Positions 4,290 to 41,719 of a stretch of 64,000 nt of DNA are shown one piece after another (position 1 is the stretch's first letter; each line of letters opens with the position of its first letter). A program made the translations under genes and the position numbers. Under the pieces are notes generated by a model. That model did no database searches and was not told the DNA's origin. It was given only the letters and a program-made list of their open reading frames with translations. The stretch spans positions 72 to 64,071 of the forward strand of contig JBAZUU010000005.1 in NCBI GenBank assembly GCA_041661275.1, given 5' to 3'. This DNA comes from Parcubacteria group bacterium. Its GTDB lineage: Bacteria; Patescibacteriota; Minisyncoccia; Moranbacterales; UBA2206.

Positions 4290-4359
4290 TCTCCCACCAC
4301 TTTTTTACTTGCATTAAGAGTGTAAAAAATATTAAAAACAAAAAAAGTGGTGGGGGATA
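4290..4359. repeat. Long palindromic element / bidirectional terminator (tctCCCACCACTTTTTT...AAAAAGTGGTGGGGGAT)
   Basis: ~17-bp perfect arms immediately after the VanW stop codon. Paralogous to 6365-6429. Confidence 0.6.
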
Positions 4360-4361
4360 AA

Positions 4362-5666
4362 TTATATTCCATGCTGTTTTTTATAGGTGGACCATTCTTT
4401 GTCCGACCAGCCGTTGGGTTTTTGAGTGAGGACATCAGAAGTTGTTCCGGGATGGGGATATTTGGAAGGGGAGTCATAGTTACTGTTAAAAGTATCATCG
4501 ATGATTATCTTTCCATTGGTGTCCGTAACTTTTTGCCCGAGCGTCGTTTTCATCGAGCCGTCAGGATTGCGTTCAATTATTTTGGGACCATTAAGCTCTA
4601 CCTTTCTTCCATCATTGGTTCCATAAAAATCGAATATCAGTTCTGTTCCCTCAATTCTGGTCTGGATCAAAATATATTTCGGAGTATTATTCATAAACCG
4701 CAAATCCGGACGGGGGACATAAACTGTCGCGTCCATCCCTTGCGGATTATAATATTGCACCGGATAAGCGTGATTGCGTCTGGCGGTAATTTTCAAGCCG
4801 GAGTTGAGCGCCGCACGGAAAGCAGTAGTGGAAACCTGACAAATTCCACCGCCAAATTCCGGTTCCGTTTTATCTTTTTTAATAACGAGCTCTGGCAGAT
4901 AGCCATGGTCGCCGTCCACTTCCCCCAGAACTTTCACAAAAGAAAAATCTTCCCCGGGTTTTATCAGGACACCGTTAAACCGGTTGGTAGCGACATTGAT
5001 ATTGAAAATTCTGTTTTTAGGCGAGCCTCGAAAATTAGAACGGCCCTCCCCGATAAGATCGCTCACCCCCAGCGCGTCAATTGAATCAACATTGGAAATT
5101 TTCGGGTCGGATTCTTTATATGGAAGATTTAGCGGTTTTTTAAAATCCGCTCCGATAATATAATTCATCAGCATTTCAGCGCTTTTTGCCTCGTCCAGTT
5201 CGATTCCCTTGGTTCCGGAAGAAAATTCTGACACTTTTCCAGCCGCTACCTTTAGCTTGGCATCCTCCGGATTTTTATTAACCTTCAGCGCCAGCGCCGC
5301 GACATAGCTGCCAATTGAATCTTCGTTTATTCTTACGACTGATTTTTTTTGAATATGAATTTTTTTTGACGGTTCAAATGAGAGAGCGCAAAAGAGCGAT
5401 TTTTTGTATCCGCAAAAATTAGAATTTTCTATTTCTGAAAAATATTGCGGATTATAAACCAGCGACGTGGATTCTTCCAGCCATTTTTTTATCTCATCTT
5501 TGGTGGCGGTATAAGTTGTGTCTTTTACGGAAATACTGACAGCATTAGGCAGGCTGGCAGTTACGGAAACCATCGAACCGGATACATCTTTAGCTTGGGT
5601 AGATAATGGCAATGTCAAAAGACATACCAACAAAACAAGGAATTTGTGAAATCCTTTTCCAATCAT
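4362..5666 (-). CDS. VanW-family secreted protein
   Basis: Signal peptide. GGGICQVSTTAFRAALNSGLKITARRNHAYPVQYY is a VanW-domain signature. Confidence 0.75.
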   Translation of the reverse strand: MIGKGFHKFLVLLVCLLTLPLSTQAKDVSGSMVSVTASLPNAVSISVKDTTYTATKDEIKKWLEESTSLVYNPQYFSEIENSNFCGYKKSLFCALSFEPSKKIHIQKKSVVRINEDSIGSYVAALALKVNKNPEDAKLKVAAGKVSEFSSGTKGIELDEAKSAEMLMNYIIGADFKKPLNLPYKESDPKISNVDSIDALGVSDLIGEGRSNFRGSPKNRIFNINVATNRFNGVLIKPGEDFSFVKVLGEVDGDHGYLPELVIKKDKTEPEFGGGICQVSTTAFRAALNSGLKITARRNHAYPVQYYNPQGMDATVYVPRPDLRFMNNTPKYILIQTRIEGTELIFDFYGTNDGRKVELNGPKIIERNPDGSMKTTLGQKVTDTNGKIIIDDTFNSNYDSPSKYPHPGTTSDVLTQKPNGWSDKEWSTYKKQHGI

Positions 5667-5790
5667 ATATTAAGAATATACCAGAAAGTTGACTTAATCA
5701 ACCGGCATTAATATGATCAAAAAAAGAAAACCTTTTTCTGATTTTCTCTTTCTAAAGCTAATTTCTTTTCTAATAAACCAGTCTCCAAAT

Positions 5791-6351
5791 CTAGAAACCT
5801 CTGACTTGGATTTTTTTTGTCCTGGTATTATTGGCTTTCGGCATGCGGATGGTCAAAATTCCGTTTTTCATCGACGCTTCCACTTTGTCAGGGACAATAT
5901 CAATCGGCAAAATGACTGATCGGGAAAAGCCACCCCAATAACATTCCTGGTAATAATAATTTTCGCCGGTGATCTGTTCATCCTGTTTTCTTTCCCCGCG
6001 AATAGTGATCATATCGTTATTGATGCTGACATCCAGATCTTCCGGCTTCACTCCGGCAATGGTAGACTTTATGACGATATCACTGTCGGTCTGATAGACA
6101 TCGATTGTCAATTGTCCCTCAGAATCGTCGGAAGAACGGGAGAAATTTTCGTCCCGGACATTGACATTTGGTCTCACTGGCGGAGAAGCGTAAACTTCCG
6201 TTTCTCTTTCATCCACGTATAAATTTCTGGAAGGTTCCAGACGGTTAGTGTCTATGGGCTGTTCAGTTTCATAAATATCATTTTCCATATCTCTGGCTCC
6301 GGTTAATTTTTCCAAAAATGATCTTTTGACTTTTACCATAATATTTTTCAA
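5791..6351 (-). CDS. Hsp20/alpha-crystallin small heat-shock protein
   Basis: LTIDVYQTD...VKPEDLDVSINNDMITIRGERK...GGFSRSVILP...KVEASMKNGILTIRMPK alpha-crystallin domain. Confidence 0.8.
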   Translation of the reverse strand: MKNIMVKVKRSFLEKLTGARDMENDIYETEQPIDTNRLEPSRNLYVDERETEVYASPPVRPNVNVRDENFSRSSDDSEGQLTIDVYQTDSDIVIKSTIAGVKPEDLDVSINNDMITIRGERKQDEQITGENYYYQECYWGGFSRSVILPIDIVPDKVEASMKNGILTIRMPKANNTRTKKIQVRGF

Positions 6352-6364
6352 AATTTAATGTTTA

Positions 6365-6429
6365 TCCCCCACCACTTTTTCACTTTTTTCTTTCGCACCA
6401 AAGGTGCGAGTGAAAAAGTGGTGGGGGAT
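6365..6429. repeat. Palindromic element (ATCCCCCACCACTTTTTCAC...GTGAAAAAGTGGTGGGGGAT)
   Basis: 20-bp perfect outer arms plus inner tcgcacc/ggtgcga pair. Lies between the stop of 6489-6959 and the hsp20 start. Confidence 0.6.
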
Positions 6430-6488
6430 GAATTAAGGCTAATTGCATTATAGTCCGGAGTGAACTTTTTGGCAAGGTTTCAGCATCA

Positions 6489-6959
6489 TTATAGCAGATA
6501 TATCACTGCCAGGTTGTATAGAATATGGATAACCGAGTTGAAAATGAGAACTCGGGTTGCCATGAAATATCGGTTTTGTTTTTTGGATATAACCATCGCG
6601 GCAAAAATAGAAGTGAAAATATGGACGGATATCATTCCTAAAAGAAAATAAAAAGGAACACTTATCAGGTTTATCTTGCCGTAATAGTTGAGAGAAAGTT
6701 CTGCAGCGGAAAAACCCAGACCCACCAAAAACCCGCCGAAAATTATTGACCGTCTTTTTTCCAGAACAGAGAAGCTTTTGTAAATTACGGCGTATTTGAC
6801 AGTTTCTTCAACCAACGCTGATAGGATGAGGAAAATACTGAAATGAGCAAAGAAAACGACTTGCTTTTCTTCCGGGAAAAAGAGTGAAAAAGAAAGTTCA
6901 AAAAACAAGGCGAAGAGAGCGGCTAAAATTCCCAGAAATAGTGATTTAATAGGAGGCAT
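6489..6959 (-). CDS. Small polytopic membrane protein, possible CPBP/CAAX-type intramembrane protease family
   Basis: Four to five hydrophobic segments; EETVKY and HILYN resemble CPBP motifs 1 and 3. Weak. Confidence 0.4.
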   Translation of the reverse strand: MPPIKSLFLGILAALFALFFELSFSLFFPEEKQVVFFAHFSIFLILSALVEETVKYAVIYKSFSVLEKRRSIIFGGFLVGLGFSAAELSLNYYGKINLISVPFYFLLGMISVHIFTSIFAAMVISKKQNRYFMATRVLIFNSVIHILYNLAVIYLL

Positions 6960-7083
6960 AAATTTCGCTCGGATACATTTTTATTTTTTGCGCGGATTTC
7001 TTCGAACAGTTTATATTTCACTTTAGGACGAGAAATCTATGCAAAAAATAAAAAGTATCCTCGCTCAATAATTAATGTAATTA

Positions 7084-8145
7084 TTATTTTAATCTTAAAT
7101 TAGCGTCGGCTTCCAATTTTTTCCAATTAGAAGATAGTATTTTTTTATTCTTTTGTGACTGATACCGAAAATGTCCAGCCGTAGCGATCATAGCGGCATT
7201 GTCAACGGAGTAAGTCATATCGGGAATAACGTACGAAGTATTTTTTAGTTCCGTATCTATTTTTTCGCCCAATTGACGGCGCAATTCGATGTTGGCTGAT
7301 ACTCCGCCGGCAATCATTATGGTTTTGGGTCTATATCTCCTGGCCGCTCGTATAGTTTTAGAGATTAAAACGTCAATAACCGCTTGCTGAAACTCATGGC
7401 ACATAGCGGATACATAATCTTTATTCTTAATTAGTTCAGGATGCTTTTTGGTTTCATACAAAACGGCGGTTTTCAGGCCAGAGAAAGAGAAGTCAAAATT
7501 CTTAGAATTAATCATCGGACGAGGCATGGCTAGCTTATAGTTGTTAGCTTTTAGCTTATAGGAATTGGCTGTTTTTGAAATAATTGGACCGCCTGGGTAA
7601 TCGAGTCCCAAAATTCTCGCTACTTTGTCAAAGGCTTCACCGGCCGCGTCATCCAGAGTCTGCCCGACTATTTCATAATTAAGATGTTTTTTCATCAACA
7701 CCAATTGCGTATGTCCGCCAGAAACTACAAGACAGAGAAGTGGAAATTTTATTCCTGATTTTTGATTTTTGCCAACGAAGTTGGCGTATATATGTCCTTC
7801 AATATGATGAATACCGATTAAGGGTTTTCCCCAAGAATAAGAAAGGGTCTTGGCGGAATTGACGCCGATGAGAAGGGCGGGGATGAGGCCTGGACCTGCG
7901 GTAACAGCAATAAGATCAATTTTTTCCGGAGTAACCCTGGCAGTTTTCAGCGCTCTTTTTATCACTGGCAAAATATTTTTCAAGTGTTCTCTGGCCGCCA
8001 AATTAGGCACAACACCACCCCATTTTGAATGAAGTGCTATTTGAGAAGAAACGACATTTGACAGCACTGAGATTCCTTTGAAATTCGCGGAAATTATGGC
8101 GGCCGCTGTCTCATCGCATGATGTTTCTATGCCTAAAATAATCAT
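7084..8145 (-). CDS. tsaD: tRNA N6-adenosine threonylcarbamoyltransferase TsaD (Kae1/Gcp)
   Basis: MIILGIETSCDETAAAI...GHIYANFV...VSGGHTQLV... are canonical TsaD motifs. Confidence 0.9.
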   Translation of the reverse strand: MIILGIETSCDETAAAIISANFKGISVLSNVVSSQIALHSKWGGVVPNLAAREHLKNILPVIKRALKTARVTPEKIDLIAVTAGPGLIPALLIGVNSAKTLSYSWGKPLIGIHHIEGHIYANFVGKNQKSGIKFPLLCLVVSGGHTQLVLMKKHLNYEIVGQTLDDAAGEAFDKVARILGLDYPGGPIISKTANSYKLKANNYKLAMPRPMINSKNFDFSFSGLKTAVLYETKKHPELIKNKDYVSAMCHEFQQAVIDVLISKTIRAARRYRPKTIMIAGGVSANIELRRQLGEKIDTELKNTSYVIPDMTYSVDNAAMIATAGHFRYQSQKNKKILSSNWKKLEADANLRLK

Positions 8146-8222
8146 AGTTTAACTATAGCTAAAGGCGGCAGATATTGCAAAAATAAGGTAACCGGAAAAT
8201 AAAACCTATAAGCAGCTATAAT

Positions 8223-8933
8223 ATGAAGACAAGCGCATATTGTCGCTTTGACTATCATCCGATGGGGCATCATAATAGATATAAGATAATAGAAATGGCT
8301 GAAAATTTTATGCCAACCCAAAAAGAAAAAAATATTTTTTTACCAACATCGGATGGCTCTAATAATTCACAAATTACCAGCCTAACTGACAACGAACTGG
8401 TGAAAATGATCAAAAATAATCCTGATCTTTTTAAGGAGATAACGGTTCGTTATCAAGGCAAACTTTTTGCCTATCTTTACCGTTTGATCGGGGATAAAGA
8501 TGAGGCGGAAGATCTTCTGCAAAATGTTTTTATCAAAAGCTATCGCAACATTGAAAGTTATGACACCAGTCGCAAATTTTCTTCCTGGATATATCGCATC
8601 GCGCATAACGAAGCGGTCAATCATATAAAAAGAAAATCCCTGAAGCGCTTTGTTTCCATCGAAAGCATTACCAGCGTGAAAGACAAAATAGACTCGGCCA
8701 GCGCTGAAGACAATGCCCATGAATCCTGGATCAGAAAAGAAACCAGTAAGGAAGTGGACGACGCTATTAAAAAATTGCCTTTCAAATATCGACAAGTTCT
8801 GGTTCTGCGTTATTATTCTGACAAGTCCTATGAAGAAATTTCCGAGATCTTGGGAAAGCCGGTCAATACCGTCGGAACGCTTATAAAACGCGCTAAAGAT
8901 AAATTGTCGGTGGAATTAGACGATCTAAAATGA
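8223..8933 (+). CDS. RNA polymerase sigma-70 family (ECF-type) sigma factor
   Basis: Region 2 (LLQNVFIKSYRNIESYD...SWIYRIAHNEAVNHIKRK) and region 4 HTH (YEEISEILGKPVNTVGTLIKRAKDKL). True start may be ATG 8295. Confidence 0.8.
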   Translation: MKTSAYCRFDYHPMGHHNRYKIIEMAENFMPTQKEKNIFLPTSDGSNNSQITSLTDNELVKMIKNNPDLFKEITVRYQGKLFAYLYRLIGDKDEAEDLLQNVFIKSYRNIESYDTSRKFSSWIYRIAHNEAVNHIKRKSLKRFVSIESITSVKDKIDSASAEDNAHESWIRKETSKEVDDAIKKLPFKYRQVLVLRYYSDKSYEEISEILGKPVNTVGTLIKRAKDKLSVELDDLK

Positions 8934-8965
8934 AAAATCCTTAAGCTAAGCTTAAGGATTTTTGT
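8934..8965 (+). terminator. Rho-independent terminator
   Basis: Perfect hairpin aatccttaagc-ta-agcttaaggatt followed by TTTTT, straight after the sigma-factor stop. Confidence 0.6.
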
Positions 8966-9489: not shown

Positions 9490-10227
9490 ATGAACCGAAA
9501 AATCGGAGTAAGCGTGGTTTGTATGCTTCCTTGGAGTTTAGGAAGAAATGGATTGGCACGCGCCACAATTATGGCGCATAACGCAGGCTTTTCTGGCTTG
9601 CAGATATTGCCATTGCGCGGATGGGATCCGCTGACATTCACGGAAGCGTCTCCTGATCAGATCATTTCCTTTGAACTGGCCTGGAATTGCGGATCACTCT
9701 GCAAAGCGATTCTTCGCCATCTGCACTTGGCGGGAGAGGAAAATCCTCTCTTTCACGACTGGCTTCTTTTCGGCAAATGTGCAGCCACGGAACGCCGGGC
9801 GGAAATGATGTTCCGATATTTCCAAAGGACATCAATGTTTATCACCCACGATGTCATTCACGTCGGCGTAATGGAAATGCACCCCGAGTTGGATTTGGAA
9901 ACTGGCGTTTATGCCAACTATCCTCACGGACTGGTATGGGATACCAAACACGTGATTCGCTCTGGACGTCACGGACAACCGCCAGTTACCGAGGATTGGG
10001 TAAGACTGCTGGACGAAGTCGGCCATAACATCCGACTCATTCACGTGAAATACCCGGTCAATCCTAAAATGCTGAAAGCCTTGGCCGAAAAGACGAACTG
10101 TCCAGTGATATTTGAGGCCAGACCACCATTAGGAAATATTTTCAAACCCCCAATGAGACACGCCCAGAAAAGAGCCATTGAATGGCTTAAAGAAAAACGA
10201 ACCTTTCTCGGCTATTTCTTTGAATAG
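9490..10227 (+). CDS. Hypothetical protein (GC-richer; possible TIM-barrel sugar-phosphate isomerase-like)
   Basis: RBS aaaggag 8 nt before ATG 9490; long ORF at ~50% GC versus ~40% locally. No confident family assignment. Confidence 0.5.
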   Translation: MNRKIGVSVVCMLPWSLGRNGLARATIMAHNAGFSGLQILPLRGWDPLTFTEASPDQIISFELAWNCGSLCKAILRHLHLAGEENPLFHDWLLFGKCAATERRAEMMFRYFQRTSMFITHDVIHVGVMEMHPELDLETGVYANYPHGLVWDTKHVIRSGRHGQPPVTEDWVRLLDEVGHNIRLIHVKYPVNPKMLKALAEKTNCPVIFEARPPLGNIFKPPMRHAQKRAIEWLKEKRTFLGYFFE

Positions 10228-10355
10228 AATCCGTTACAAACGTATTGAATTAGAGAGGAGAGACTTCAAAAGCCTTTCCTCTCCATTTCTGAATCTATCA
10301 GTTTATGGTGGATTTGGATGATGGAAATTGTTCTTTACACAAAGGAGATCTGAAA

Positions 10356-18685: not shown

Positions 18686-18939
18686 GGAAGCGTGGCCGAG
18701 TGGCTGAAGGCGACAGCTTGTCCCGCACCATTTTTCATTTAAAGTCGAGTCTTTTTAAGTTTTTTATTGGAAGAGTGCCCGAGTGGTTTAAGGGAACAGT
18801 CTTGAAAACTGTCGTATCCGAAAGGGTACCGTGAGTTCGAATCTCACCTCTTCCGCAAAAAATGAAAAATGGTGCGGGATCGCGAAAAACTGCAGTACCG
18901 GAAACGGTACCGAAGGTTCGAATCCTTCCGCTTCCGCCA
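18686..18939 (+). other. Split tRNA-Ser-like gene interrupted by a ~160-nt insert
   Basis: 5' part 18686-18720: acceptor GGAAGCG plus Ser-type D-arm. 3' part 18880-18939: class-II variable arm GTACCGGAAACGGTAC, T-arm, CGCTTCC-G-CCA. The insert is bounded by the 10-bp inverted repeat TCCCGCACCA/TGGTGCGGGA and contains tRNA-Ser(TGA). Confidence 0.5.
18769..18855 (+). tRNA. tRNA-Ser (TGA), nested inside the split tRNA-like gene
   Basis: GGAAGAGTGCCCGAGTGGTTTAAGGGA, loop CTTGAAA, variable arm, GAGTTCGAATCTCAC, acceptor CTCTTCC. Confidence 0.85.
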
Positions 18940-19642: not shown

Positions 19643-19735
19643 ACAGTTTCAATGGGCGCCCGAATGGACGCCTTGTTTTATTGCTATAATTTCTTATTGA
19701 TATTAAAATTGTTTTAGAAGTTGTTAATAGTTTTT

Positions 19736-19803
19736 CCCTCTCCTGTCAGCCATAAATTTTCAGAAAAATTTAGGCTGACATCCTCTCCCTTCGGGAGAGG
19801 AGA
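19736..19803. repeat. RPE-like palindromic element copy A (CCCTCTCCTGTCAGCC...GGCTGACATCCTCTCCC..GGGAGAGGAG)
   Basis: Two nested hairpins. 19 nt upstream of tRNA-Pro(GGG). Confidence 0.7.
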
Positions 19804-19822
19804 ATAAGGAAGGTAGTTTTCG

Positions 19823-19906: not shown

Positions 19907-20323
19907 ATGTCAAAAAATATCGAAATAATTTCAAGAGCGTTCATTGTAAAAGAGGGAGAGGTCTTGCTGTGTAAGGTTAAATCCAAAGATAATTATTTTT
20001 TCCCTGGTGGGCATGTGGAATACGGAGAAAAAGTTGAGGATGCTTTGAAAAGAGAGTTGAAAGAAGAAATTGGCAAAGAATTGGAAAATATAAATTTTAT
20101 CGGAATTTGCGAAAATACTTTTCAGTTTATGGGAGAACATCAGGAAATCAATCTGGTTTTTGAAGCGGAAATTAATGATGATAAATTAGAAGTTTTAGAA
20201 GACCATATGGAATTTGGTTGGTTTTCTTTTAATAGAATTGAATCAATGAATGTTTTGCCAGAAAAATTAAAAAAGGAATTTTTGAAGTGGATAAAAAATA
20301 AGAAGATTTTTTATATAGTTTAA
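19907..20323 (+). CDS. NUDIX hydrolase
   Basis: Nudix box GGHVEYGEKVEDALKRELKEEIG. Confidence 0.8.
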   Translation: MSKNIEIISRAFIVKEGEVLLCKVKSKDNYFFPGGHVEYGEKVEDALKRELKEEIGKELENINFIGICENTFQFMGEHQEINLVFEAEINDDKLEVLEDHMEFGWFSFNRIESMNVLPEKLKKEFLKWIKNKKIFYIV

Positions 20324-20428
20324 CCCTCTCCTGTCAGCCATAAATTTTCAGAAAAATTTAGGCTGACATCCTCTCCCGCTCCGCCAGCCGGCGGACGGGC
20401 GAGGAGGATTTGAAAGAACTACTCATAG
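20324..20428. repeat. RPE-like palindromic element copy B with extended GC hairpin and GGAGGATTTGAAAG tail
   Basis: First 54 nt identical to copy A. Immediately upstream of tRNA-Pro(CGG). Confidence 0.7.
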
Positions 20429-21614: not shown

Positions 21615-21639
21615 TGTTGAAATTATATCATAAGCCCGT

Positions 21640-21730
21640 CCCTCTCCTGTCAGCCAGAATTTTAAGAAAAATTCAGGCTGACATCCTCTCCCAAGGGGAG
21701 AGGAGGATTTGAAAGTTACTATTTATAGGG
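21640..21730. repeat. RPE-like palindromic element copy C
   Basis: CCCTCTCCTGTCAGCCagaattttaagaaaaattcaGGCTGACATCCTCTCCCaaggGGAGAGGAGGATTTGAAAG. Confidence 0.7.
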
Positions 21731-21792: not shown

Positions 21793-21913
21793 CACGACTT
21801 GTCCTCTCACCAATTCCGCGAAAGATTTTCCAGGGAGAAAATCAGAAGACGAAGTCGCCTAGCGGCTTCAGTTGGTTGAATGGGGAAGTTTTTTCAAGAA
21901 TTGGTGAGGGGAT
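21793..21913 (+). promoter_or_regulatory. Pilus-locus leader element copy 1 (candidate cis-regulatory RNA / MITE)
   Basis: Outer stem CCTCTCACCAATTC...GAATTGGTGAGGGGAT, conserved core AGTCGCCTAGCGGCTTC. 24 nt upstream of the pilM ATG. Confidence 0.55.
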
Positions 21914-21936
21914 AAAAAAATAAAAACAATTAGAAA

Positions 21937-27707: not shown

Positions 27708-27820
27708 ATCCCAGCACCAATTCCGACAAAGATTAGTGAAGTATAGAGATTAGTGCTCGGATTCGCCTGCGGCTTGACATCGAAATAAAAATAAATTAGT
27801 TTTGCGAATTGGTGCGGGAT
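27708..27820 (+). promoter_or_regulatory. Pilus-locus leader element copy 2
   Basis: ATCCCAGCACCAATTCC...ATTCGCCTGCGGCTTG...GAATTGGTGCGGGAT. 47 nt upstream of the pilC ATG 27867. Confidence 0.55.
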
Positions 27821-27866
27821 GCTCAATTTTGTAGCTACTCGCTTCGCTCGCAGACAAAATTGGCAA

Positions 27867-29078: not shown

Positions 29079-29118
29079 AAGATAGTTGATTAAGATAGAA
29101 AAATAAAAATAAAAAACT

Positions 29119-29258
29119 AGAAAGCGAGGTGTATTATGGCTAAAAAGAAAACAAAAAAGAAAAAAAAGAAAGGGTTTACCCTGATTGAACTTTTGATCGT
29201 TATCGCGATCATCGGAATTCTGGCTTCGATCGTTTTAGTGAGCTTGAGTAGCGCGAGA
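29119..29258. repeat. 140-bp segment identical to 29599-29738 (pilin 5' region)
   Basis: Includes RBS, Lys-rich leader and conserved pilin N-terminus. Confidence 0.9.
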
Positions 29259-29504
29259 CAAAAGGCCAAGGATGCAGAATTTAAGTCAGCAGTTTCAAGT
29301 TTGGTTGCGGCCTATGTTATCTATTGTGATGACACTGTCAATCAGACACAGCCTACTGATCCTCCATCATTAACGTCGACTATAACGACCTGTGCTGACG
29401 GAGCACTCGCAGGCACTGCGGCTCCAACGGCAGCTACCGGAGCCTTGAATTGTACGGGCGCTACTTTTACAGAAACCGGGGTCACTTCTTTTACCGGATG
29501 CTAA
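29136..29504 (+). CDS. pilA: Type IV pilin (major pilin candidate 1)
   Basis: Leader MAKKKTKKKKKKG | FTLIELLIVIAIIGILASIV (class III signal, Glu+5). Confidence 0.8.
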   Translation: MAKKKTKKKKKKGFTLIELLIVIAIIGILASIVLVSLSSARQKAKDAEFKSAVSSLVAAYVIYCDDTVNQTQPTDPPSLTSTITTCADGALAGTAAPTAATGALNCTGATFTETGVTSFTGC

Positions 29505-29598
29505 TTTAACTTAAAAATTTTTATGCTTGCTGATTGATTTGAAAATCGGCAAGCAAATAAAATTCATTAAAGATAAAATAGTAACTAAATATTTATAT

Positions 29599-29738
29599 AG
29601 AAAGCGAGGTGTATTATGGCTAAAAAGAAAACAAAAAAGAAAAAAAAGAAAGGGTTTACCCTGATTGAACTTTTGATCGTTATCGCGATCATCGGAATTC
29701 TGGCTTCGATCGTTTTAGTGAGCTTGAGTAGCGCGAGA
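29599..29738. repeat. Second copy of the pilin 5' repeat
   Basis: Identical to 29119-29258. Confidence 0.9.
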
Positions 29739-30014
29739 ACCAGAGCCAATGTTGCAAAGGCAAAATCTATCGCGTCAAGTATGGGAGCCGCAGTTGTTAT
29801 GGAATGTGACAAGGTCGCTGCCGATAGAGCTGTTATTACTTCTACTGATACAGCTTTTGTACCCACACTAACAGTGGCTAATATAAACACGATTTGTGGA
29901 GCCGCTGCTGGAACAGTTGCTCTTACTACAGCATTTGGGGCTTCTGCTCCGAACTGCTCGGCGCAATGGATAGCAGAAGGAATAGGTGTAAGTTTTACCG
30001 GAACTGGTTGCTAA
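29616..30014 (+). CDS. Type IV pilin (paralogue 2: identical N-terminus, divergent C-terminus)
   Basis: Same 45 N-terminal residues as 29136, then an unrelated C-domain. Confidence 0.8.
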   Translation: MAKKKTKKKKKKGFTLIELLIVIAIIGILASIVLVSLSSARTRANVAKAKSIASSMGAAVVMECDKVAADRAVITSTDTAFVPTLTVANINTICGAAAGTVALTTAFGASAPNCSAQWIAEGIGVSFTGTGC

Positions 30015-30245: not shown

Positions 30246-31388
30246 TTGATAATACACAAATTTATGATTAAACGCTTTTTTAGCCCTCCTGAGCCATTAT
30301 TAGAGTCAAACAAAGTGCTTATTATTTATGGGCCGAGAAGGGTCGGAAAAACGACACTGCTTAAGGAACTGCTCGATAACACATCATTAAGATATCGTTT
30401 TGACTCCGGAGAAAATATTCGAGTTCAGGAAGTGCTTAGCTCAAATGATTTTGAAAAAATCAAAGAATATGTTGGAAACAACGAGTTGATAGCGATTGAC
30501 GAAGCGCAACAAATTCCTAATATTGGGATGGGACTAAAAATTATCATCGATCAGGTGCCGAAGATAAAAGTCGTAGTGACAGGGTCATCAAGCTTTGAAT
30601 TGTTTAATCAGATCGGAGAACCGCTCGTGGGAAGAAAAAAAACAATAACTTTGTTTCCGTTCGCGCAAGTGGAACTTGCCAAGATATATAATACTTTTGA
30701 TCTTGAAGGCAGGCTGAAAGAATTTCTCATATATGGAACCTACCCGGACGTATATCTCGCGAAGACGAAACATGAAAAGGAGACGCTCCTCAACGAAATC
30801 GTTGACGCTTATCTTTTGAAGGATGTTCTAGCGCTTGACGATGTGAAAAAATCACGTACACTTGTTGATTTGGTAAAATTGCTCGCGCTTCAAGTGGGAA
30901 GCGAGGTGTCGCTGAATGAACTGGCGCAACAGTTGAGCGCCAATGTACGTACCATCGAAAAATATCTTGATATATTGGAGAAAGGGTTTGTAATTATTTC
31001 TCTTTCAGCTTTGAAGCGCAATTTGCGCAATGAAATACGTGATAAAAGAAAATATTATTTTTACGATACTGGAGTGCGCAACGCTTTACTCTCGCAATTC
31101 AATGACGTGACGCTTCGTAATGATGTGGGCGCGCTGTGGGAGAATTTTCTTTTTATCGAGCGACTAAAAAAATGTTCCTATCGGTCGATGTTTGCCAACA
31201 GATATTTTTGGCGCACCTATGATCAAAAAGAACTGGATCTCATTGAGGAATATGATGGAATTTTTCATGCTTATGAATTCAAATGGAAAAAAGAAACTGC
31301 GCCGTATCCGAAAAAATTTATAGAAAGTTATCCACAATCTTCATTTGAAGTAATAAACAAGGATAATTATCGTGGTTTCGTGGCGTAG
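30246..31388 (+). CDS. AAA+ ATPase with DUF4143 domain
   Basis: Walker A GPRRVGKTT, DEAQ Walker B, DUF4143-like C-terminus. Paralogue at 51136. Confidence 0.75.
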   Translation: MIIHKFMIKRFFSPPEPLLESNKVLIIYGPRRVGKTTLLKELLDNTSLRYRFDSGENIRVQEVLSSNDFEKIKEYVGNNELIAIDEAQQIPNIGMGLKIIIDQVPKIKVVVTGSSSFELFNQIGEPLVGRKKTITLFPFAQVELAKIYNTFDLEGRLKEFLIYGTYPDVYLAKTKHEKETLLNEIVDAYLLKDVLALDDVKKSRTLVDLVKLLALQVGSEVSLNELAQQLSANVRTIEKYLDILEKGFVIISLSALKRNLRNEIRDKRKYYFYDTGVRNALLSQFNDVTLRNDVGALWENFLFIERLKKCSYRSMFANRYFWRTYDQKELDLIEEYDGIFHAYEFKWKKETAPYPKKFIESYPQSSFEVINKDNYRGFVA

Positions 31389-33411: not shown

Positions 33412-33417
33412 AAACCA

Positions 33418-33984: not shown

Positions 33985-34040
33985 TACGCAAAAGCGCGCA
34001 TGCGAATGTTTCTTAAGTAAATTAAGTTTCTCAGGACTCT

Positions 34041-34629: not shown

Positions 34630-34742
34630 ATCCCGCACCAATTCCAATATGGCGCAGATATGGCCTAAGGAGTAGTGTGCGAATTCGCCTAACAGCTAAG
34701 TTTTAAATAAAAAATTAATATAACTGCGAATTGGTGCGGGAC
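34630..34742 (+). promoter_or_regulatory. Pilus-locus leader element copy 3
   Basis: ATCCCGCACCAATTCC...GAATTCGCCTAACAGC...GAATTGGTGCGGGAC. The track ORF start (TTG 34731) lies inside it. Confidence 0.55.
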
Positions 34743-34784
34743 ACTAAATTTTGTTTCCACTCGCCAAGCTCGCGGACAAAATTT

Positions 34785-35444
34785 GTGAAACACAAAGCAT
34801 CTATTCTGGCAGTAACGCTCATAACTTTGAGTATTATCCTTGTTACCGCGTTAGCCGTATCTTTGGCGGCGATAAAACAGAGGAACGCTTCTTTGGGATC
34901 GGGAAAATCCAATCTGGCTTTCCAAAACGCCGATACGGGCGTGGAAGAGGCGATGAATGAGATTACCGGAGGCACCAGCGCCACAGTTGGTGATGTATGC
35001 GGAAATTTACCTGGTACATATACGGGATATACTGTAAAATTTTTTGATAAAGATAATATTGAATTGAGTTGTTCAGGCGATGCTGGAAAATCAAAAAATG
35101 AAATAACTTCCATTAAATCAGTAGGTGTGGGAGCCAATCAAGAATCGAGAGCGATCGAAGCGGCAGTGGCGGCAGTGAAAAGCAGTAAAATTTGCGCCAC
35201 TTGGAATGGAAATGGTCTTCCCGATAAATCATTTGCTGATTATTTACCGGTTCCGATGAATTGGCAAATAGATGATTGTAAAAAGTGGGCCAAGCAAGTT
35301 TTTGATAATGCAAAAAATTCATACGCCGTAGGCTGTATTACGGATGAATCTGCCGGTAGCAACGGTGTTGTATTTGGTTCTTTTTGCGATACGACAAGTT
35401 GTGATGCAGATGCTCCGAGCGGAACAAAAAATTGCGGCTGGTAA
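34785..35444 (+). CDS. PilX-like minor pilin/adhesin
   Basis: GTG start. Hydrophobic N-terminus ASILAVTLITLSIILVTALAVSLAAI followed by a Cys-rich variable domain. Confidence 0.5.
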   Translation: MKHKASILAVTLITLSIILVTALAVSLAAIKQRNASLGSGKSNLAFQNADTGVEEAMNEITGGTSATVGDVCGNLPGTYTGYTVKFFDKDNIELSCSGDAGKSKNEITSIKSVGVGANQESRAIEAAVAAVKSSKICATWNGNGLPDKSFADYLPVPMNWQIDDCKKWAKQVFDNAKNSYAVGCITDESAGSNGVVFGSFCDTTSCDADAPSGTKNCGW

Positions 35445-35509: not shown

Positions 35510-37753
<2,244 letters not shown>

Positions 37754-37772
37754 GTTTTTTGAGGTTTCCTTG

Positions 37773-37842
37773 GTTTCTTAGGTTACTTAAGTTGCTTACG
37801 ACTCGCCAAAATTTTTGCTTCGCAAAAACTTAGGCGAGAGAA
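37773..37842. repeat. CTTAGG-motif element + UUCG-loop hairpin upstream of gatC
   Basis: gtttcttaggttacttaagttgcttacgac then imperfect hairpin actcgccaaaatttttgc-ttcg-gcaaaaacttaggcgag. Confidence 0.55.
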
Positions 37843-37847
37843 GGATT

Positions 37848-38129
37848 ATGATCTCGAAAGATGAAGTAAAACATATCGCGGAACTGGCGAGGATTGGACT
37901 GGACAAAAAAGAGATCGAAAAGTTTTCGACTGATTTGTCGTCTATTTTGGACTGGATAGAGCAGTTGAAAGAAGTGGATATTGAGAATGTTGAGGCAATA
38001 GGGCATATTACGGGGATGGAAAATATCACGCGGAAGGATAAAACTCATGAATTTGATAATACTAGCGGAATCAAGGAATTGTTTCCAGAGGAAAAGGATG
38101 GATATGACAAGGTGAAGAGCGTTTTGTAG
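37848..38129 (+). CDS. gatC: Glu/Asp-tRNA amidotransferase subunit GatC
   Basis: MISKDEVKHIAELARIGL...LDWIEQLKEVD are typical GatC. ATG 37848. Confidence 0.8.
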   Translation: MISKDEVKHIAELARIGLDKKEIEKFSTDLSSILDWIEQLKEVDIENVEAIGHITGMENITRKDKTHEFDNTSGIKELFPEEKDGYDKVKSVL

Positions 38130-38130
38130 G

Positions 38131-38191
38131 ATTCTTAGGACTCTTAGGTTACTTACGACCCGCCCAAATTTTGCAGACAAAACTTGGGCGG
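38131..38191. repeat. CTTAGG-motif element + hairpin upstream of gatA
   Basis: attcttaggactcttaggttacttacgacc then hairpin cccgcccaaattttg-cagac-aaaacttgggcggg. Confidence 0.55.
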
Positions 38192-38199
38192 GAGAAAAA

Positions 38200-39675
38200 A
38201 TGATTAGAGAGCTACACGAAAAATTAATAAACGGCAAAATTACTTCTGTTGAATTGACACAGCAGTATTTTGACGCGATTGAAAAAAAAGACAAAGATAT
38301 ATTTGCATACCTGACACTTACAAAAGACCTGGCCATGGAACAGGCCAAAAAAGTGGATGAAAAAATTGCGCGGGGTGAGAAAATAGAACTACTCGAGGGT
38401 ATTCCAGGCGCGATAAAGGATGTTATTTGCACTGAAGGTGTACGCACTACTGCCGGATCGAAAATACTGGACAACTATATCGCTCCGTATGACGCAACGG
38501 CGGTAAAAAATCTGAGAAGTTTAGGCGCGGTCATTTTGGGCAAAACCAATTGTGATGAGTTTGCCATGGGATCGAGCACAGAAAACAGCGCCTATGGCCC
38601 GACAAAAAATCCACACGACCTGACTCGAGTGCCAGGCGGAACTTCCGGAGGATCAGCGGCGGCTATTGCGGCTGATATGGCAGTGTGGACGCTGGGAACA
38701 GATACTGGCGGTTCGATCAGGCAACCATCGTCACTTTGCGGAACAGTTGGGCTAAAACCAACTTACGGTCGGGTGTCACGCTATGGCCTCATCGCGGCCG
38801 CATCAAGTTTTGATTGTATTGGTCCTATCGCAAAAACAGTTGAAGACGCGGCCATTATCCTTTCGGCTATTTCCGGGCAGGATAAAAATGACGCCACTTC
38901 CGCGCATTCCAGTGACAAAAAATATGAAGACTATCTGACAGGAGTTGTGAGGGGAATGAAAATCGGAGTGGTGAAAGAATATCTGAAAGAGTTGAAAGAG
39001 GACGTTAGAAAAGTTATGGAAGAGGTGATAGAAAAATATAAAAAATTGGGAGCGGAAATTGTTGAAATTGAATTGCCGTATAATAAATATGCCTTGCCGG
39101 CTTACTACATAATCCAGCCTTCAGAAGTCAGCTCGAATTTGGCGAGATTTGACGGAGTGAAATACGGATTGAGAGTAAACGATGCAAAGGATTCTGTTGG
39201 AGATCGGGGAGATAAGGGGGATTGGGGAAATATGCCGAAAACTCTTCTGGAAACATATTTGGATACCAGGAAATATGGGTTAGGCGCTGAAGCGAAAAGA
39301 AGAATAATGCTGGGGACTTACGCGCTGTCATCCGGATATTATGAAGCGTATTATGTCCGGGCGCAAAAAGTCCGCGCGCTTATCAGGAAAGACTTTGAAA
39401 GAATATTTAATGAAGTAGATCTTATCCTGACTCCGACGACGACTGGCCCGGCGTTTAAGATTGGAGAAAAAATAGACGATCCGTTAGTCATGTATTTGGA
39501 AGATATTTTTACGGTTCCTGCCAACATCACCGGCGTACCGGCTATTTCCGTTCCAGCAGGCGTGGTAGAATTAGAAGGCAAGAAATTGCCTATCGGATTC
39601 CAACTTATGGGGAAATGGTTTGATGAAGAAAATTTGTTGCGCGCGGCGCACGCGTGGGAGAACGTATCCGTCTGA
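38200..39675 (+). CDS. gatA: Glutamyl-tRNA(Gln) amidotransferase subunit A
   Basis: Amidase signature GGSSGGSAAAIAA and Ser-cisSer-Lys region. In-frame purine-rich insert around 39190-39240. Confidence 0.9.
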   Translation: MIRELHEKLINGKITSVELTQQYFDAIEKKDKDIFAYLTLTKDLAMEQAKKVDEKIARGEKIELLEGIPGAIKDVICTEGVRTTAGSKILDNYIAPYDATAVKNLRSLGAVILGKTNCDEFAMGSSTENSAYGPTKNPHDLTRVPGGTSGGSAAAIAADMAVWTLGTDTGGSIRQPSSLCGTVGLKPTYGRVSRYGLIAAASSFDCIGPIAKTVEDAAIILSAISGQDKNDATSAHSSDKKYEDYLTGVVRGMKIGVVKEYLKELKEDVRKVMEEVIEKYKKLGAEIVEIELPYNKYALPAYYIIQPSEVSSNLARFDGVKYGLRVNDAKDSVGDRGDKGDWGNMPKTLLETYLDTRKYGLGAEAKRRIMLGTYALSSGYYEAYYVRAQKVRALIRKDFERIFNEVDLILTPTTTGPAFKIGEKIDDPLVMYLEDIFTVPANITGVPAISVPAGVVELEGKKLPIGFQLMGKWFDEENLLRAAHAWENVSV

Positions 39676-39846
39676 GAAATCAAAAATTTTCTCGAAATTG
39701 AACTCGAATCATGAATTTTCTAGCCAAAAATTTCCCTCAATCAAAGGCTGCCACAGGAAATTTTTGGAGAAAATTCAGATTCTCAAACAGTAATTTCTCA
39801 AAATTTTTTGATTTCTCAGTCGTTTATTTAATATAAAATAAAAAAT

Positions 39847-40407
39847 ATGGACACTTCCGGCAATATTATGGCGGACGTAACTAATTCGCTTTTGTATTTC
39901 TATAACTCGACGACTTTTTCGGTTATCAAGTTTATCATTGGAATATATGTGGCGGTGATTTTTGTCGACATCATTCTTTTTCTTTTTCAACGGGGATTGG
40001 GCGGGGATGTCCGCGATACGCGGCTTGGTATGAACGTTCCTAAGGAGTTTCTAAGAAAAAAGCCGCGGCAAAAATTGGCGATGCGATGGAAAAAATTAAG
40101 AGAAGAAATAGAAACAGGAGAAAATAATAAAATAAAAGTAGCCATAATTTCTGCTGACGACATAATAGCGAACCTTATTCGACGAATGTATGCCGGAGCG
40201 CCGTTTGCCAAAAAAGAGATTCCGATCGATGAGATGCTAAACGCCATTCCGGACGGACAGATAGAGAATATGGCGGATATAAAAAACTCTCATTTGGAAA
40301 GAAACAGGATTATCCATGATGAGAGTTTCCATCCAACCAAAGAAGAAGCGTACGAAATCTTAGCGCCTTTTGAAGAATTTTTACGCTATCATGGGGTGCT
40401 GGATTGA
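39847..40407 (+). CDS. Hypothetical membrane-anchored protein
   Basis: ORF with N-terminal TM. Confidence 0.5.
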   Translation: MDTSGNIMADVTNSLLYFYNSTTFSVIKFIIGIYVAVIFVDIILFLFQRGLGGDVRDTRLGMNVPKEFLRKKPRQKLAMRWKKLREEIETGENNKIKVAIISADDIIANLIRRMYAGAPFAKKEIPIDEMLNAIPDGQIENMADIKNSHLERNRIIHDESFHPTKEEAYEILAPFEEFLRYHGVLD

Positions 40408-40540
40408 CAAAGCAGGATTTTACGGATAAAATAGAGAGCAGTCTTTGTATTTATATATATAGCGGGGTGGAGTCCCGCCAAGGCGGGAGTAACTCGCAGT
40501 ACAATGACTATGAGTAAATTTAAGTTTAGCTTGAAAACAT

Positions 40541-40614
40541 AGCGGGGTGGAGCAGTCTGGTAGCTCGCGTGGCTCATAACCACGAGGTCGCCGGTTCAAA
40601 TCCGGCCCCCGCAA
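40541..40614 (+). tRNA. Initiator tRNA-fMet (CAT)
   Basis: AGCGGGGTGGAGCAGTCTGGTAGCTCG...CTCATAA...GGTTCAAATCCGGCCCCCGCAA. Unpaired 1:72 (A:A) is initiator-like. Confidence 0.75.
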
Positions 40615-40678
40615 CATTGAAGTTGATATATTTTCGAACTAGCCGTATAATTAATGCATAACATATACGGTAGGTTTT

Positions 40679-41356
40679 ATGTCAAAATCAAAGGAACAAC
40701 TTTTAGCTCGCGATTTAAGAAAAAAGGGACTAAGTATAAACGAAATCTCGAGAAGGCTTAAGGTTTCGAAAAGCTCTGTTAGTCGCTGGTGTTCCGATAT
40801 TCAGTTGTCCAAAAAGCAGATTAAAATCCTGCATGACCAAATGGTCAGGGGAAGTTACAAGGGTAGAATGATCGGAGTAGAAATTCAAAAGCAGAGGAAG
40901 AAGAAAAAAATTGAAGAATGTTTATTAAGGGCAAAAAAAGATATTCCAATTCTGACGAAAAGAGAGTTATTCATTGCGGGGTTATCGCTTTATTGGGGAG
41001 AAGGAGCGAAAAATTGTTCCAATGTTCGGTTATATAATTCCGATCCATTTGTGATAAAGCTCATTATGAAATGGTTCAGAGAGTCATTGAATATTAAGGA
41101 TGATGAATTTCAGATGTATGTAAATGTTAACGGAATCCACAAGAATAGATCGGATGACATAATTAAATATTGGTCAAAAATAACCAAAGTTCCTACAAAT
41201 CAGTTTAGAAAACCTACCCTTATTAAGGTGAAAAATAAGAAGATTTATGAGAATTTTAACGAACACTACGGAACGCTCTCAATCAGAATCGCTAAGAGTA
41301 AGTACTTACTTTATCAGATTTTAGGGTGGATAGAGGCATTGGGTGAGGCAGGGTAG
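40679..41356 (+). CDS. HTH-domain protein with LAGLIDADG-like motif (possible homing-endonuclease relative)
   Basis: N-terminal LSINEISRRLKVSKSSVSRWC HTH; FIAGLSLYWGEGAK resembles LAGLIDADG. Embedded among tRNA genes. Confidence 0.45.
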   Translation: MSKSKEQLLARDLRKKGLSINEISRRLKVSKSSVSRWCSDIQLSKKQIKILHDQMVRGSYKGRMIGVEIQKQRKKKKIEECLLRAKKDIPILTKRELFIAGLSLYWGEGAKNCSNVRLYNSDPFVIKLIMKWFRESLNIKDDEFQMYVNVNGIHKNRSDDIIKYWSKITKVPTNQFRKPTLIKVKNKKIYENFNEHYGTLSIRIAKSKYLLYQILGWIEALGEAG

Positions 41357-41420
41357 CTCAGTTGGTTAGAGCACGGCACTCATAAGGCCGGGGTCAAGAG
41401 TTCGAGTCTCTTCCCTGCTA
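41347..41420 (+). tRNA. tRNA-Met or tRNA-Ile2 (CAT)
   Basis: GGCAGGGTAGCTCAGTTGGTTAGAGC, loop CTCATAA, GAGTTCGAGTCTC. Confidence 0.75.
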
Positions 41421-41438
41421 CAAAATTAAATAATAATT

Positions 41439-41512
41439 GGGGGCGTAGCTCAGTTGGTTAGAGCGATTGCCTGTCACGCAATAGGTCGAGGGTTCGAGTC
41501 CCTTCGCTCCCG
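41439..41512 (+). tRNA. tRNA-Asp (GTC)
   Basis: GGGGGCGTAGCTCAGTTGGTTAGAGC, loop CTGTCAC, GGGTTCGAGTCCC. Confidence 0.85.
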
Positions 41513-41526
41513 CAAAATCATTGAAA

Positions 41527-41552
41527 TAGCCCGTGTTTAGGCTATTTTTTGA
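41527..41552 (+). terminator. Rho-independent terminator after the tRNA pair
   Basis: atagcc-cgtgttt-aggctat hairpin + TTTTTT. Confidence 0.5.
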
Positions 41553-41564
41553 TGCCAAAAAGGC

Positions 41565-41593
41565 TTGCAAATATCCGAAAAAAAGACTATAAT
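41565..41593 (+). promoter_or_regulatory. Sigma70-type promoter TTGCAA-17-TATAAT
   Basis: 15 nt upstream of leader element copy 4. Confidence 0.4.
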
Positions 41594-41608
41594 TAACAGG
41601 TAATATCG

Positions 41609-41719
41609 ATCCCTACACCAATTTCAGGAGGGGTTATCCGAGGGAAAAACAGGAAAACAAATTCGCCTGACGGCTTTAATTAGCTGAAATAAAAGACTTT
41701 ACAAAAATTGGTGAGGGAT
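41609..41719 (+). promoter_or_regulatory. Leader element copy 4
   Basis: ATCCCTACACCAATTTC...AAATTCGCCTGACGGCTTTA...AAATTGGTGAGGGAT. 12 nt upstream of ATG 41731. Confidence 0.55.

Follow-up and report, generated by a model that had tools for sequence, protein, structure and literature searches.

Leaders and tRNA cassettes bounded by a shared inverted repeat in a Parcubacteria genome and in metagenomes

Several otherwise different palindromic elements in a single stretch of bacterial DNA end in the same short inverted repeat, which raises the question of whether such repeats are the ends of mobile DNA or the two strands of an RNA structure. The stretch, referred to below as the window, comprises 64,000 nucleotides (nt) from a Parcubacteria group bacterium (contig JBAZUU010000005.1 of assembly GCA_041661275.1, positions 72 to 64,071), and an initial annotation had interpreted its repeats as the termini of a superfamily of miniature inverted-repeat transposable elements (MITEs). 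Here, we propose that these "termini" are the 5′ and 3′ strands of one RNA helix that would close and bound modular structured-RNA cassettes, and that the helix-bounded modules have been under selection at the RNA level after past spread by DNA-level copying, a reading to which we assign a probability of about one half.

The shared helix and a family of 5′ leaders

The motif ATCCCNCACCA has seven matches in the window compared with 0.11 expected from shuffled sequences, none of which reached seven, and TCCCGCACCA with up to one mismatch has ten matches compared with 2.59 expected. Except for a match at 62761 in a coding repeat, every match is one half of an inverted pair, and terminal inverted repeats with arms of 10-14 bp, extending up to 20 bp, are found at every element. 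The resulting closing helix, P1, has the consensus 5′-(A)UCCCNCACCA(AUU)...(AAU)UGGUGNGGGA(U)-3′, and its N position covaries across the arms (C-G-C/G-C-G versus C-U-C/G-A-G). The shared termini reported in the initial annotation are therefore real and not due to chance within the window, and the sites listed for them were recovered at the leaders, the insert in a tRNA-Ser-like gene, the hairpins at 4290 and 6364 and the short hairpin at 40473-40488; only a further copy placed inside intein 1 was absent with every motif pattern run on the window. The view that these elements form one family with conserved ends and variable cargo also holds; regulatory hairpins and a tRNA are among the interiors, as are, outside the window, rRNA inserts. 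Many more members exist than the window reveals, as a metagenome scan for exact 10-mer arms separated by 84-144 nt matched at least 119 stretches (individual loci are denoted below by L and a number).

Four of the elements in the window (E1-E4) are leaders, all of which lie on the + strand, share an interior hairpin UCGCCU..GGCU and have folds that beat those of shuffled sequences (z from -2.9 to -7.2). E1 (21800-21914) is located upstream of pilM (ATG 21937; PilM_2 Pfam match), with P1 formed by UGUCCUCUCACCAAUU / AAUUGGUGAGGGGAUA, an interior hairpin CGCCUAGCGGC and a fold of -52.8 kcal/mol (z = -7.2), and it matches the leader profile in an nhmmer search. The best match to this profile, with 136.5 bits, is E2 (27708-27820), the left P1 arm of which has a bulged A; together with a second hairpin, H2 (27820-27865), it occupies 27708-27866, directly 5′ of pilC (T2SSF Pfam match), whose real start is ATG 27867 and not 27819 because the proteins of relatives align from there. 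E3 (34630-34742) and its H2 (34742-34784) occupy 34630-34787 and include the GTG start (34785) of a gene encoding a membrane protein (MKHKASILAVTL...), which is itself upstream of ligA; only E3 has the exact 14-mer on both arms (ATCCCGCACCAATT / AATTGGTGCGGGA). E4 (41608-41719) is located 5′ of ATG 41731, the start of a 123-amino-acid membrane protein whose gene is followed by gyrB, and has P1 arms GAUCCCUACACCAAUU / AAUUGGUGAGGGAU, with AAACAUAAAAU between the right arm and the ATG. H2 is absent from both E1 and E4; at the N position of these two leaders, the arms form a U:A pair or are bulged, and the opposite arm is altered to match. E1, E2 and E4 begin 10-20 nt past a -10 box, either TGGTATAAT (ending approximately 12 nt upstream of E1) or the promoter TTGCAA-17-TATAAT (just upstream of E4). 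The previous designation of all four as pilus leaders is appropriate for E1 (pilM) and E2 (pilC), whereas E3 and E4 precede no pilus gene recognizable by Pfam.

Two additional hairpins contain a C variant of the arms (ATCCCCCACCAC/GTGGTGGGGGAT). The hairpin at 6364-6429 on the - strand (ATCCCCCACCACUUUUUCACU...AGUGAAAAAGUGGUGGGGGAU, with an inner mini-hairpin CGCACC-UUU-GGUGCG) has its minus-strand end 24 nt upstream of the hsp20 start (6339; HSP20 Pfam match), shares its tail GGGAUAAAC with E4 and folds with -46.4 kcal/mol (z = -11.1), and is most likely a cis-acting leader in the 5′ untranslated region (5′-UTR) of hsp20. The other (4290-4359, - strand) lies between the 3′ end of the VanW gene and a tRNA-Lys/Arg/His/Arg cluster and has an imperfect left arm (TCTCCCACCAC), a 14-bp stem, a 34-nt loop and no trailing U tract. 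Intrinsic terminators were considered for the two sites and rejected, as the loops are 34 nt and 24 nt long and a U run is present on neither strand.

Most genes in the window lack a Shine-Dalgarno (SD) sequence and have A-rich upstream tracts or are leaderless. Examples include the starts at 8223, 11481, 31490 and 35522 as well as 14587 and 29136, which have an A-rich tract or a TATAAT only 7-10 nt upstream; the position of the latter box suggests that such genes may be transcribed as leaderless mRNAs. A few genes carry a full SD sequence, GAGGTGATCC.

Among the matches listed in the metagenome scan, 109 unique elements were distinguished: 39 leaders, 17 that enclose a tRNA, four associated with rRNA, 38 with other interiors and 11 in loci with more than 55% G+C. 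The leaders have a common anatomy that consists of P1 (UCCCGCACCAAUU/AAUUGGUGCGGGA), the hairpins P2 (UUCCG/CGGAA) and P3 (GCC..GGC) and a linker rich in A and U, to which the full form adds H2 (UGCUCAUUUUUG...CAAAAAUGGCA), a hairpin whose pairing takes in the start codon and the codon after it. The 3′ arm of H2 contains the AUG and codon 2, and in a variant of this hairpin (CAAUUUUG/CAAAAUUG) the AUG follows immediately. In an alignment of 36 sequences covering P1, P2, P3 and H2, 92.6% of the cells were paired compared with 34-46% when the partner columns were slid, and both-sided changes were observed in 17 pairs, with compensatory changes in 12 of the 16 pairs of H2. The observed values of five covariation measures were each reached by 0-1 of 500 shuffles. 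Moreover, a U·G wobble in H2 is kept on the sense strand in 33 of the 36 sequences, and codon 2 covaries at its third (wobble) base with the base following GGGA. Such covariation, together with the sense-strand U·G wobble, therefore indicates selection at the RNA level.

All leader copies with readable downstream sequence are in the sense orientation and directly 5′ of an open reading frame (ORF), whose AUG either forms part of the 3′ arm of H2 or closely follows it. Based on Pfam, the downstream ORFs encode ribosomal proteins S14, S5 and L11, NusG, SecY, Ddl, NTP transferase, GAPDH, SMC and an EPSP_synthase-family protein (murA-like), and others, read from their N-termini alone, are taken by us to be L24, L16, S7, L28, ParB, glycyl-tRNA synthetase and pilins. 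An N-terminal MA is common to most of these proteins because AUGGC belongs to the hairpin. Two copies precede the adjacent nusG and rplK genes on one 2.4-kb contig (L073), and approximately one-third of the metagenome copies have a -10 box directly upstream. When the variable regions were compared in the partial genomes available, copies from the same genome had identities of 0.43-0.58, compared with a mean background of 0.45, whereas copies preceding the same gene in different organisms were the most alike (0.77 and 0.61 for murA; rplK copies paired with rplK copies). The copies are therefore old. A search against 4227 Rfam models at the gathering threshold returned tRNA and rRNA matches only and none for the leaders, whose best sub-threshold match in a permissive search had E = 0.65. 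The leader is an undescribed Patescibacteria family of structured RNA and a putative 5′-UTR element.

The sequence just outside P1 also has recurrent features. In the 5-7 nt that precede P1, there is a tendency toward (AU)GGCUA (L072, both copies in L073, L085, L091, L104, L163 and others), and ATGGC, the word that ends H2, occurs within 12 nt upstream of P1 in seven of 37 leaders compared with approximately 0.3 expected by a rough estimate. Such upstream ATGGC/GGCUA sequences could be a relic of insertion at a start codon or a part of the structure. An outward extension of P1 by the flanks GGCUA/UGCUC was considered and rejected, because it is weakly conserved and its first position shows no covariation. 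It was also considered whether the arms mimic a tRNA acceptor, as GCGGGAU/AUCCCGC is the acceptor stem of a retrieved tRNA-Gly (followed by ACCA); this idea was discarded because the strand order is reversed. Resemblances to CsrA sites and to a 16S segment are also conceivable.

Based on PilC, the window belongs to Candidatus Moranbacteria, a lineage of the candidate phyla radiation (CPR)/Patescibacteria, and thus to an ultra-small bacterium. A contig search with PilM retrieved only the same genome (L046, 100% identical). Orthologous leaders were examined at the pilM and pilC positions of relatives. In the closest species representatives (L001 and L003; PilC 63-64% identical), a leader is present at the same position between pilT and pilC as well as upstream of pilM, and a leader upstream of pilM is also found in L010. 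Eight other loci (L002, L004-L009 and L030; PilC 53-63% identical) have no leader upstream of pilC, and in L004-L006 and L008 an ordinary promoter and the SD sequence GAGGGTGA occupy its place. The orthologous pilM leaders differ in their P1 sequences (CCUCUCACCAAUU/AAUUGGUGAGGGG, CCCCGCACUAAUU/AAUUAGUGCGGAG and CCCCGGCGAAAAAUU/AAUUUUCGCAGGG), which indicates that the sequence of P1 can drift in diverged orthologues, and the changes among the pilM and pilC leaders of the window, L001, L003 and L010 include the compensations CACC/GGUG to GAAA/UUUC and C:G to U:A. Since P1 differs in sequence yet pairs in each orthologue, the helix has been maintained by compensation; in this respect, the arms resemble an RNA structure under selection and not decaying transposon ends.

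The same comparison revealed two differences between L001 and L003. In L001, a 77-nt helix-bounded element (9901-9977) is nested in the loop of H2 of the pilC leader and is absent from both L003 and the window; the first 14 nt of its interior repeat the beginning of the pilC ORF (AATTTATATTCAAA). L003 has an extra hairpin that is absent from L001. Both look like DNA-level insertions. A separate family of small palindromes, CCTGCCTACCGGCAGGCAGG(TAG), has inserted into apical loops of H2, a pilM leader and the T arm of a degenerate tRNA (L075, ~840-870; L088, ~745-775; L010, 205-230; L086, in the downstream flank of the cassette; L002, ~9930-9960).

tRNA cassettes and rRNA-associated copies

A different cargo is enclosed by the helix at 18721-18879 (+ strand), where perfect 20-nt arms (18721-18740 and 18860-18879; TCCCGCACCATTTTTCATTT / AAATGAAAAATGGTGCGGGA) surround an intact tRNA-Ser(TGA) gene (18769-18856). 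The cassette splits an outer, degenerate tRNA-Ser-like gene (18686-18939, + strand; 5′ part 18686-18720, 3′ part 18880-18939) at approximately 35/36 in the anticodon loop, as the initial annotation had described. Acceptor, D, variable and T arms of the outer gene are intact; after removal of the cassette it has a malformed 8-nt loop and no serine anticodon. Similar cassettes, in which the arms enclose an intact tRNA, were found in 17 metagenome loci among the matches listed. The enclosed tRNAs belong to 11 isotypes, with specificities that include Ser, Trp, Val, Thr, Ala, Phe, Ile, Asn, Leu and Tyr, and the flanks of the cassettes contain fragments of a tRNA of the same isotype. The break points in the outer tRNA vary (after the D arm, 35/36, 37/38 or in the T loop). 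The outer copy is nearly complete in the window, L070 and L081; elsewhere, arms have been lost or extra small palindromes gained. The inner and outer copies of L133 have 43 identical nt, and duplication can therefore be recent and local. A local duplication of flanking sequence inside the cargo was seen only for tRNA cargo and the nested element of L001.

Deletion of the insert at any boundary between -10 and +12 nt failed to restore a tRNA in ten of 16 loci, whereas removal yielded a callable tRNA in L081 and perhaps L061. Since deletion mostly restores nothing, the insert is not a functional gene's intron. In the tRNA cassettes, the helix has an inner extension with 13 G·U versus two A·C pairs on the sense strand of the tRNA, which hints that the helix may form in the tRNA precursor. 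Within the window, the helix flanks one of 13 tRNAs.

Regarding rRNA-associated copies, one element lies inside a 23S gene (L062) and another ends 12 nt before a 16S gene (L135), both genes being identified by Rfam. Small hairpins of the window also resemble the ends of larger elements and overall match their outer 6-7 bp. A copy of a 5′ fragment of tRNA-fMet (40453-40500, + strand; TAGCGGGGTGGAG...), upstream of the intact tRNA-fMet gene (40541-40615), is interrupted by the hairpin TCCCGCCAAGGCGGGA (40473-40488), and a hairpin of no assigned strand at 2281-2299 (AATCCCGCTTTGCGGGATT; AATCCCGC-TTT-GCGGGATT), 36 nt upstream of a serine recombinase gene, has its outermost 7 bp in common with the larger elements.

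In the literature searched, no description of helix-bounded elements, of nested tRNAs of this kind or of comparable leaders in the CPR was found, and a report on group I introns in Patescibacteria does not mention helix-bounded elements (PMC13011429).

Proposed function, spread and competing explanations

If the helix-bounded modules are RNA structures, E1-E4 and most likely the hsp20 hairpin would act in cis as 5′-UTR leaders. Since the genome is mostly SD-less, initiation should be determined by how accessible the AUG is, and a gene would stay off for as long as its H2 remains closed. P1-P3 might serve as a platform for a trans-acting factor, such as a helix-specific RNA-binding protein, a nuclease or a small ligand, which would set the balance between closed and open H2 or the stability of the mRNA; alternatively, P1-P3 may be a 5′ stabilizer or a processing site. 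The helix itself could be a generic, sequence-specific handle that has been reused around tRNAs, a 23S rRNA insert and other structured RNAs. New copies may arise by DNA-level copy-insertion or local duplication into the loops of structured-RNA genes and before start codons, a mode of spread that would differ from classical cut-and-paste transposition and would leave most copies old and vertically inherited.

The most similar regulatory systems are T-box leaders and translational riboswitches, which are also present in many paralogous copies before different genes of one genome and have covarying helices, peripheral hairpins that vary and, further downstream, a hairpin in which the initiation region is hidden. 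Unlike these, the leaders described here precede genes for ribosomal proteins, cell wall synthesis, secretion, pili and glycolysis rather than a single pathway, have a sequence-conserved closing helix that is reused around tRNAs and rRNA inserts, and match no Rfam model; to our knowledge, no riboswitch class reuses its closing helix in this way. Gene regulation and RNA processing in CPR bacteria, which are hard to culture, are almost unknown. If the proposal is correct, a leader that hides the start codons of genes for ribosomal proteins, the cell wall, secretion, glycolysis and pili would be a candidate for a switch that controls translation globally, which is notable in bacteria that are largely SD-less. 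Cassettes with a tRNA inside its own pseudogene would represent a way to replace or duplicate essential RNA genes that we did not find described in the literature searched, the split outer genes may confuse tRNA annotation, and the conserved helix would provide a simple sequence tag for finding such elements in metagenomes.

Several observations weigh against this proposal. E1 and E4 have no H2, and the start-codon mechanism cannot apply to them as stated. The gene set is too broad for inferring one effector, be it a ligand, a protein, a tRNA or temperature. The nested element of L001 and the extra hairpin of L003 point to DNA-level mobility, for which a purely regulatory reading has no need. 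It is also left unexplained why a tRNA cassette should lie within the remains of a gene for that tRNA, why a 10-bp direct repeat surrounds the L135 element upstream of 16S and why ATGGC is found upstream of seven of the 37 leaders. In addition, the sequence conservation of P1 is overstated because the loci were retrieved by an exact-arm pattern, and the 11 elements in loci with more than 55% G+C may be chance matches.

A bolder extension of the proposal, possible if doubtful, is that Patescibacteria have a dedicated helix-handle system in which a conserved RNA helix of 11-14 bp, recognized by its own factor, would be a universal boundary of RNA cassettes that copy themselves. If so, leaders before dozens of housekeeping genes, tRNAs and rRNA expansion segments would all be bounded alike, and self-copying would explain the otherwise unreported occurrence of a live tRNA inside its own dead copy.

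Among the alternatives, it is unlikely that the helix is simply the cleavage site of an endoribonuclease of the RNase III, Mini-III or Cas6 type, which would punctuate transcripts by releasing tRNAs, detaching leaders within operons, and fragmenting or trimming rRNA. This would agree with the location of the helix beside tRNAs, 12 nt upstream of the 16S 5′ end, inside the 23S gene and at intercistronic positions of ribosomal-protein operons (several in L091, as well as nusG-rplK in L073), with the many leader copies that have no promoter of their own and with the sense-strand G·U bias. The right-arm tail GCGGGAUAAAC, we presume, also resembles the 3′ part of a type I-E CRISPR repeat. The helix is not a general tRNA-processing signal, as it flanks a single tRNA among the 13 of the window, and cleavage alone leaves the conserved P2/P3 interior, H2 and the decayed tRNA halves outside the cassettes unexplained. 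Similarly, RNase III stems of rRNA operons and of phage T7 intercistronic regions are conserved helices around stable RNAs and between cistrons, a role that would account for the presence of one helix at tRNA, rRNA and mRNA, whereas the known sites are less conserved in sequence across organisms and have neither the inner domain nor the start-codon hairpin of the elements described here.

The original interpretation, that these are MITE-type non-autonomous DNA transposons with ends recognized by a transposase encoded elsewhere and with incidental cargo, is quite unlikely in our view, although part of it is consistent with the data. In its favor are the conserved 10-14-bp inverted repeats with a sharp outer boundary, at which a purine precedes the arm in 173 of 192 arms and beyond which the helix seldom extends, the highly variable interiors, the nested or extra copies that differ between related genomes, and the insertions within tRNA genes, rRNA genes and loops of other hairpins. 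The same applies to the 10-bp direct repeat of L135, to 4-nt direct repeats at seven of 96 elements (0.4 expected) and to the upstream ATGGC that mirrors the 3′ end of H2. The cases of presence versus absence amount to two, both between L001 and L003, and the palindromic arms give no orientation for the non-leader classes. On the other hand, a target-site duplication of fixed length, the check suggested in the initial annotation, was not found among the 96 unique elements, where matches of 1-2 nt were at or below the shuffled expectation and no consistent duplication was seen at 1-3 nt. No transposase with matching ends was found either: apart from a serine recombinase that is not bounded by the arms, the window contains no transposase, including IS200/IS605 and TnpB, and none recurs near the elements in approximately 120 loci, in which the recurring neighbor families are housekeeping only. 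Mobile ends with incidental cargo would also not account for leaders that are strictly sense and fixed in position relative to the start codon, for dissimilar copies within one genome, for orthologous copies kept at a PilC identity of approximately 60% with compensatory changes in the arms, or for the covariation and strand-specific G·U of H2. What remains of the interpretation is an inverted-repeat family with some DNA-level insertion and duplication; target-site duplications, a transposase and likeness among copies of the same genome do not form part of it.

Comparison with known repeats leads to a similar picture. Neisseria Correia/NEMIS, enterobacterial ERIC/IRU and pneumococcal RUP/BOX elements are likewise approximately 100-160 bp long, have terminal inverted repeats, lie between genes and are co-transcribed as long hairpins that can alter expression, and nested or extra copies of them also differ between related genomes. 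Unlike Correia elements, which duplicate TA, the elements described here have no consistent target-site duplication and no cognate transposase was found for them; their interiors are unrelated between classes and diverged within a genome, the sense register of the leaders is fixed, and orthologues compensate. Rickettsia palindromic elements are palindromes of approximately 100-150 bp inside essential genes, including RNA genes, and are likewise old and not obviously mobile. In contrast, they insert in frame into protein genes and have a conserved interior, whereas the present elements avoid coding sequence, have variable cargo and include a functional copy of the interrupted tRNA gene.

It is very unlikely that the cassettes are integrated mini-circles or relics of a serine recombinase, with the tRNA fragments as debris of attachment (att) sites and the joined arms (..GCGGGAT·ATCCCGC..; AATTGGTGCGGGAT·ATCCCGCACCAATT) as a palindromic crossover site. 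The large serine recombinase gene of the window (2335-3957; Resolvase, Recombinase and Zn ribbon domains) adjoins the tRNA cluster, the small hairpin at 2281-2299 and the 4290 hairpin, and a homologue with 40% identity is encoded approximately 450 nt from the nested tRNA-Ser cassette of L110; moreover, CGAA repeats flank tRNA-Ser(CGA) cassettes. Integrase targets are typically marked by displaced 3′ fragments of tRNAs that start in either the T or the anticodon loop, and those of the cassettes can be counted in support. This lead amounts to two of approximately 120 loci, the breaks in the outer tRNA vary (26/27, 35/36, 37/38 and the T loop), the cargo always has the same orientation as the outer fragments, and the leaders are clearly RNA elements. 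Furthermore, the recombinase gene is flanked not by the arms but by its own 152-bp inverted repeat (2053-2204 and 3730-3881; 99.3% identity), the right copy of which covers the recombinase's own C-terminal codons 466-517 and ends 8 nt inside a tRNA-Arg gene (3874-3949). Such a region has the appearance of either an invertible segment or the border of an integrated element. A phage-type Bro-N gene (853-1719) adjoins the recombinase.

An intron in the tRNA-Ser gene, either of the archaeal bulge-helix-bulge kind or a degenerate group I intron, has been largely refuted. The window's outer tRNA does break at approximately 35/36, an unusual position at which group I introns of Patescibacteria tRNAs have been reported (PMC13011429), and has kept its acceptor, D, variable and T arms; in addition, L081 and perhaps L061 give a callable tRNA after removal. 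Against this, no boundary from -10 to +12 nt restored a tRNA in ten of 16 loci, the window's outer gene is left with an 8-nt loop and no serine anticodon, no group I match was found with Rfam, the base of the helix has no bulge-helix-bulge geometry and whole arms are missing from many outer copies. The arrangement of an RNA gene within a tRNA gene recalls the RNAs in tRNA introns and the split or permuted tRNA genes of archaea and red algae, and the Patescibacteria group I introns share the 35/36 break with the window (PMC13011429); unlike tRNA introns, the cassettes have neither a bulge-helix-bulge nor a group I core, and they enclose a complete copy of the same tRNA whose outer version is usually dead. 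Finally, a DNA uptake sequence for type IV pilus-based competence, with inverted pairs as in Neisseria, is disfavored to the point of dismissal even though the motif was first noticed beside pilus genes and its core GTGCGG presumably resembles the Haemophilus uptake sequence, as the matches of the window are neither solitary nor coding (with 62761 as the sole exception), structured interiors separate the arms by 50-160 nt, the leader also precedes genes other than those for pili and the covariation is at the RNA level.

Other repeats and genes

A second repeat family in the window, CCCTCTCCTGTCAGCC...GGCTGACATCCTCTCCC-loop-GGGAGAGGAG, forms two interlocking hairpins at 19716-19820, 20304-20408, 21639-21723 and 46421-46525. 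The CCCTCTCCTGTCAGCC repeats are located upstream of both tRNA-Pro genes, of the pilM promoter and of a 1502-amino-acid ORF and have no Rfam match. In addition, runs of a 9-nt periodic repeat (CTTAGGTNG / CTTAAGTNN / CTTACGA) occur at or just past the ends of genes and before the next gene (34000-34037, 37743-37810, 38109-38167, 42090-42139, 44234-44595, 44933-44982, 45511-45548 and 46388-46425). In the metagenomes, a distinct long hairpin that has the closing helix described above (UCCCGCACCAAUUGUCCUAUAGUG...) and no Rfam match was observed in L052, L082, L131 and L154, and reversed in L066; the gene directly 3′ of this hairpin is taken by us to be mnmG/gidA by its N-terminus alone, and the contigs have 46-50% G+C.

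With respect to other genes of the window, those at 56784-57167, 52499-52903, 30246-31388 and 51136-52383 encode a protein of the 23S-rRNA-intervening-sequence type, a PD-(D/E)XK nuclease and two AAA_14+DUF4143 ATPases, gene types that often travel with mobile or defense DNA. Two tandem paralogous small genes (29107-29329 and 29587-29809), both of which begin with MAKKKTKKKKKK, are 85% identical over 223 nt, and the last 4 kb of the window contains a long array of coding repeats (GGCAACGTCGGCATCGGGACGACG...; 60142-63415).

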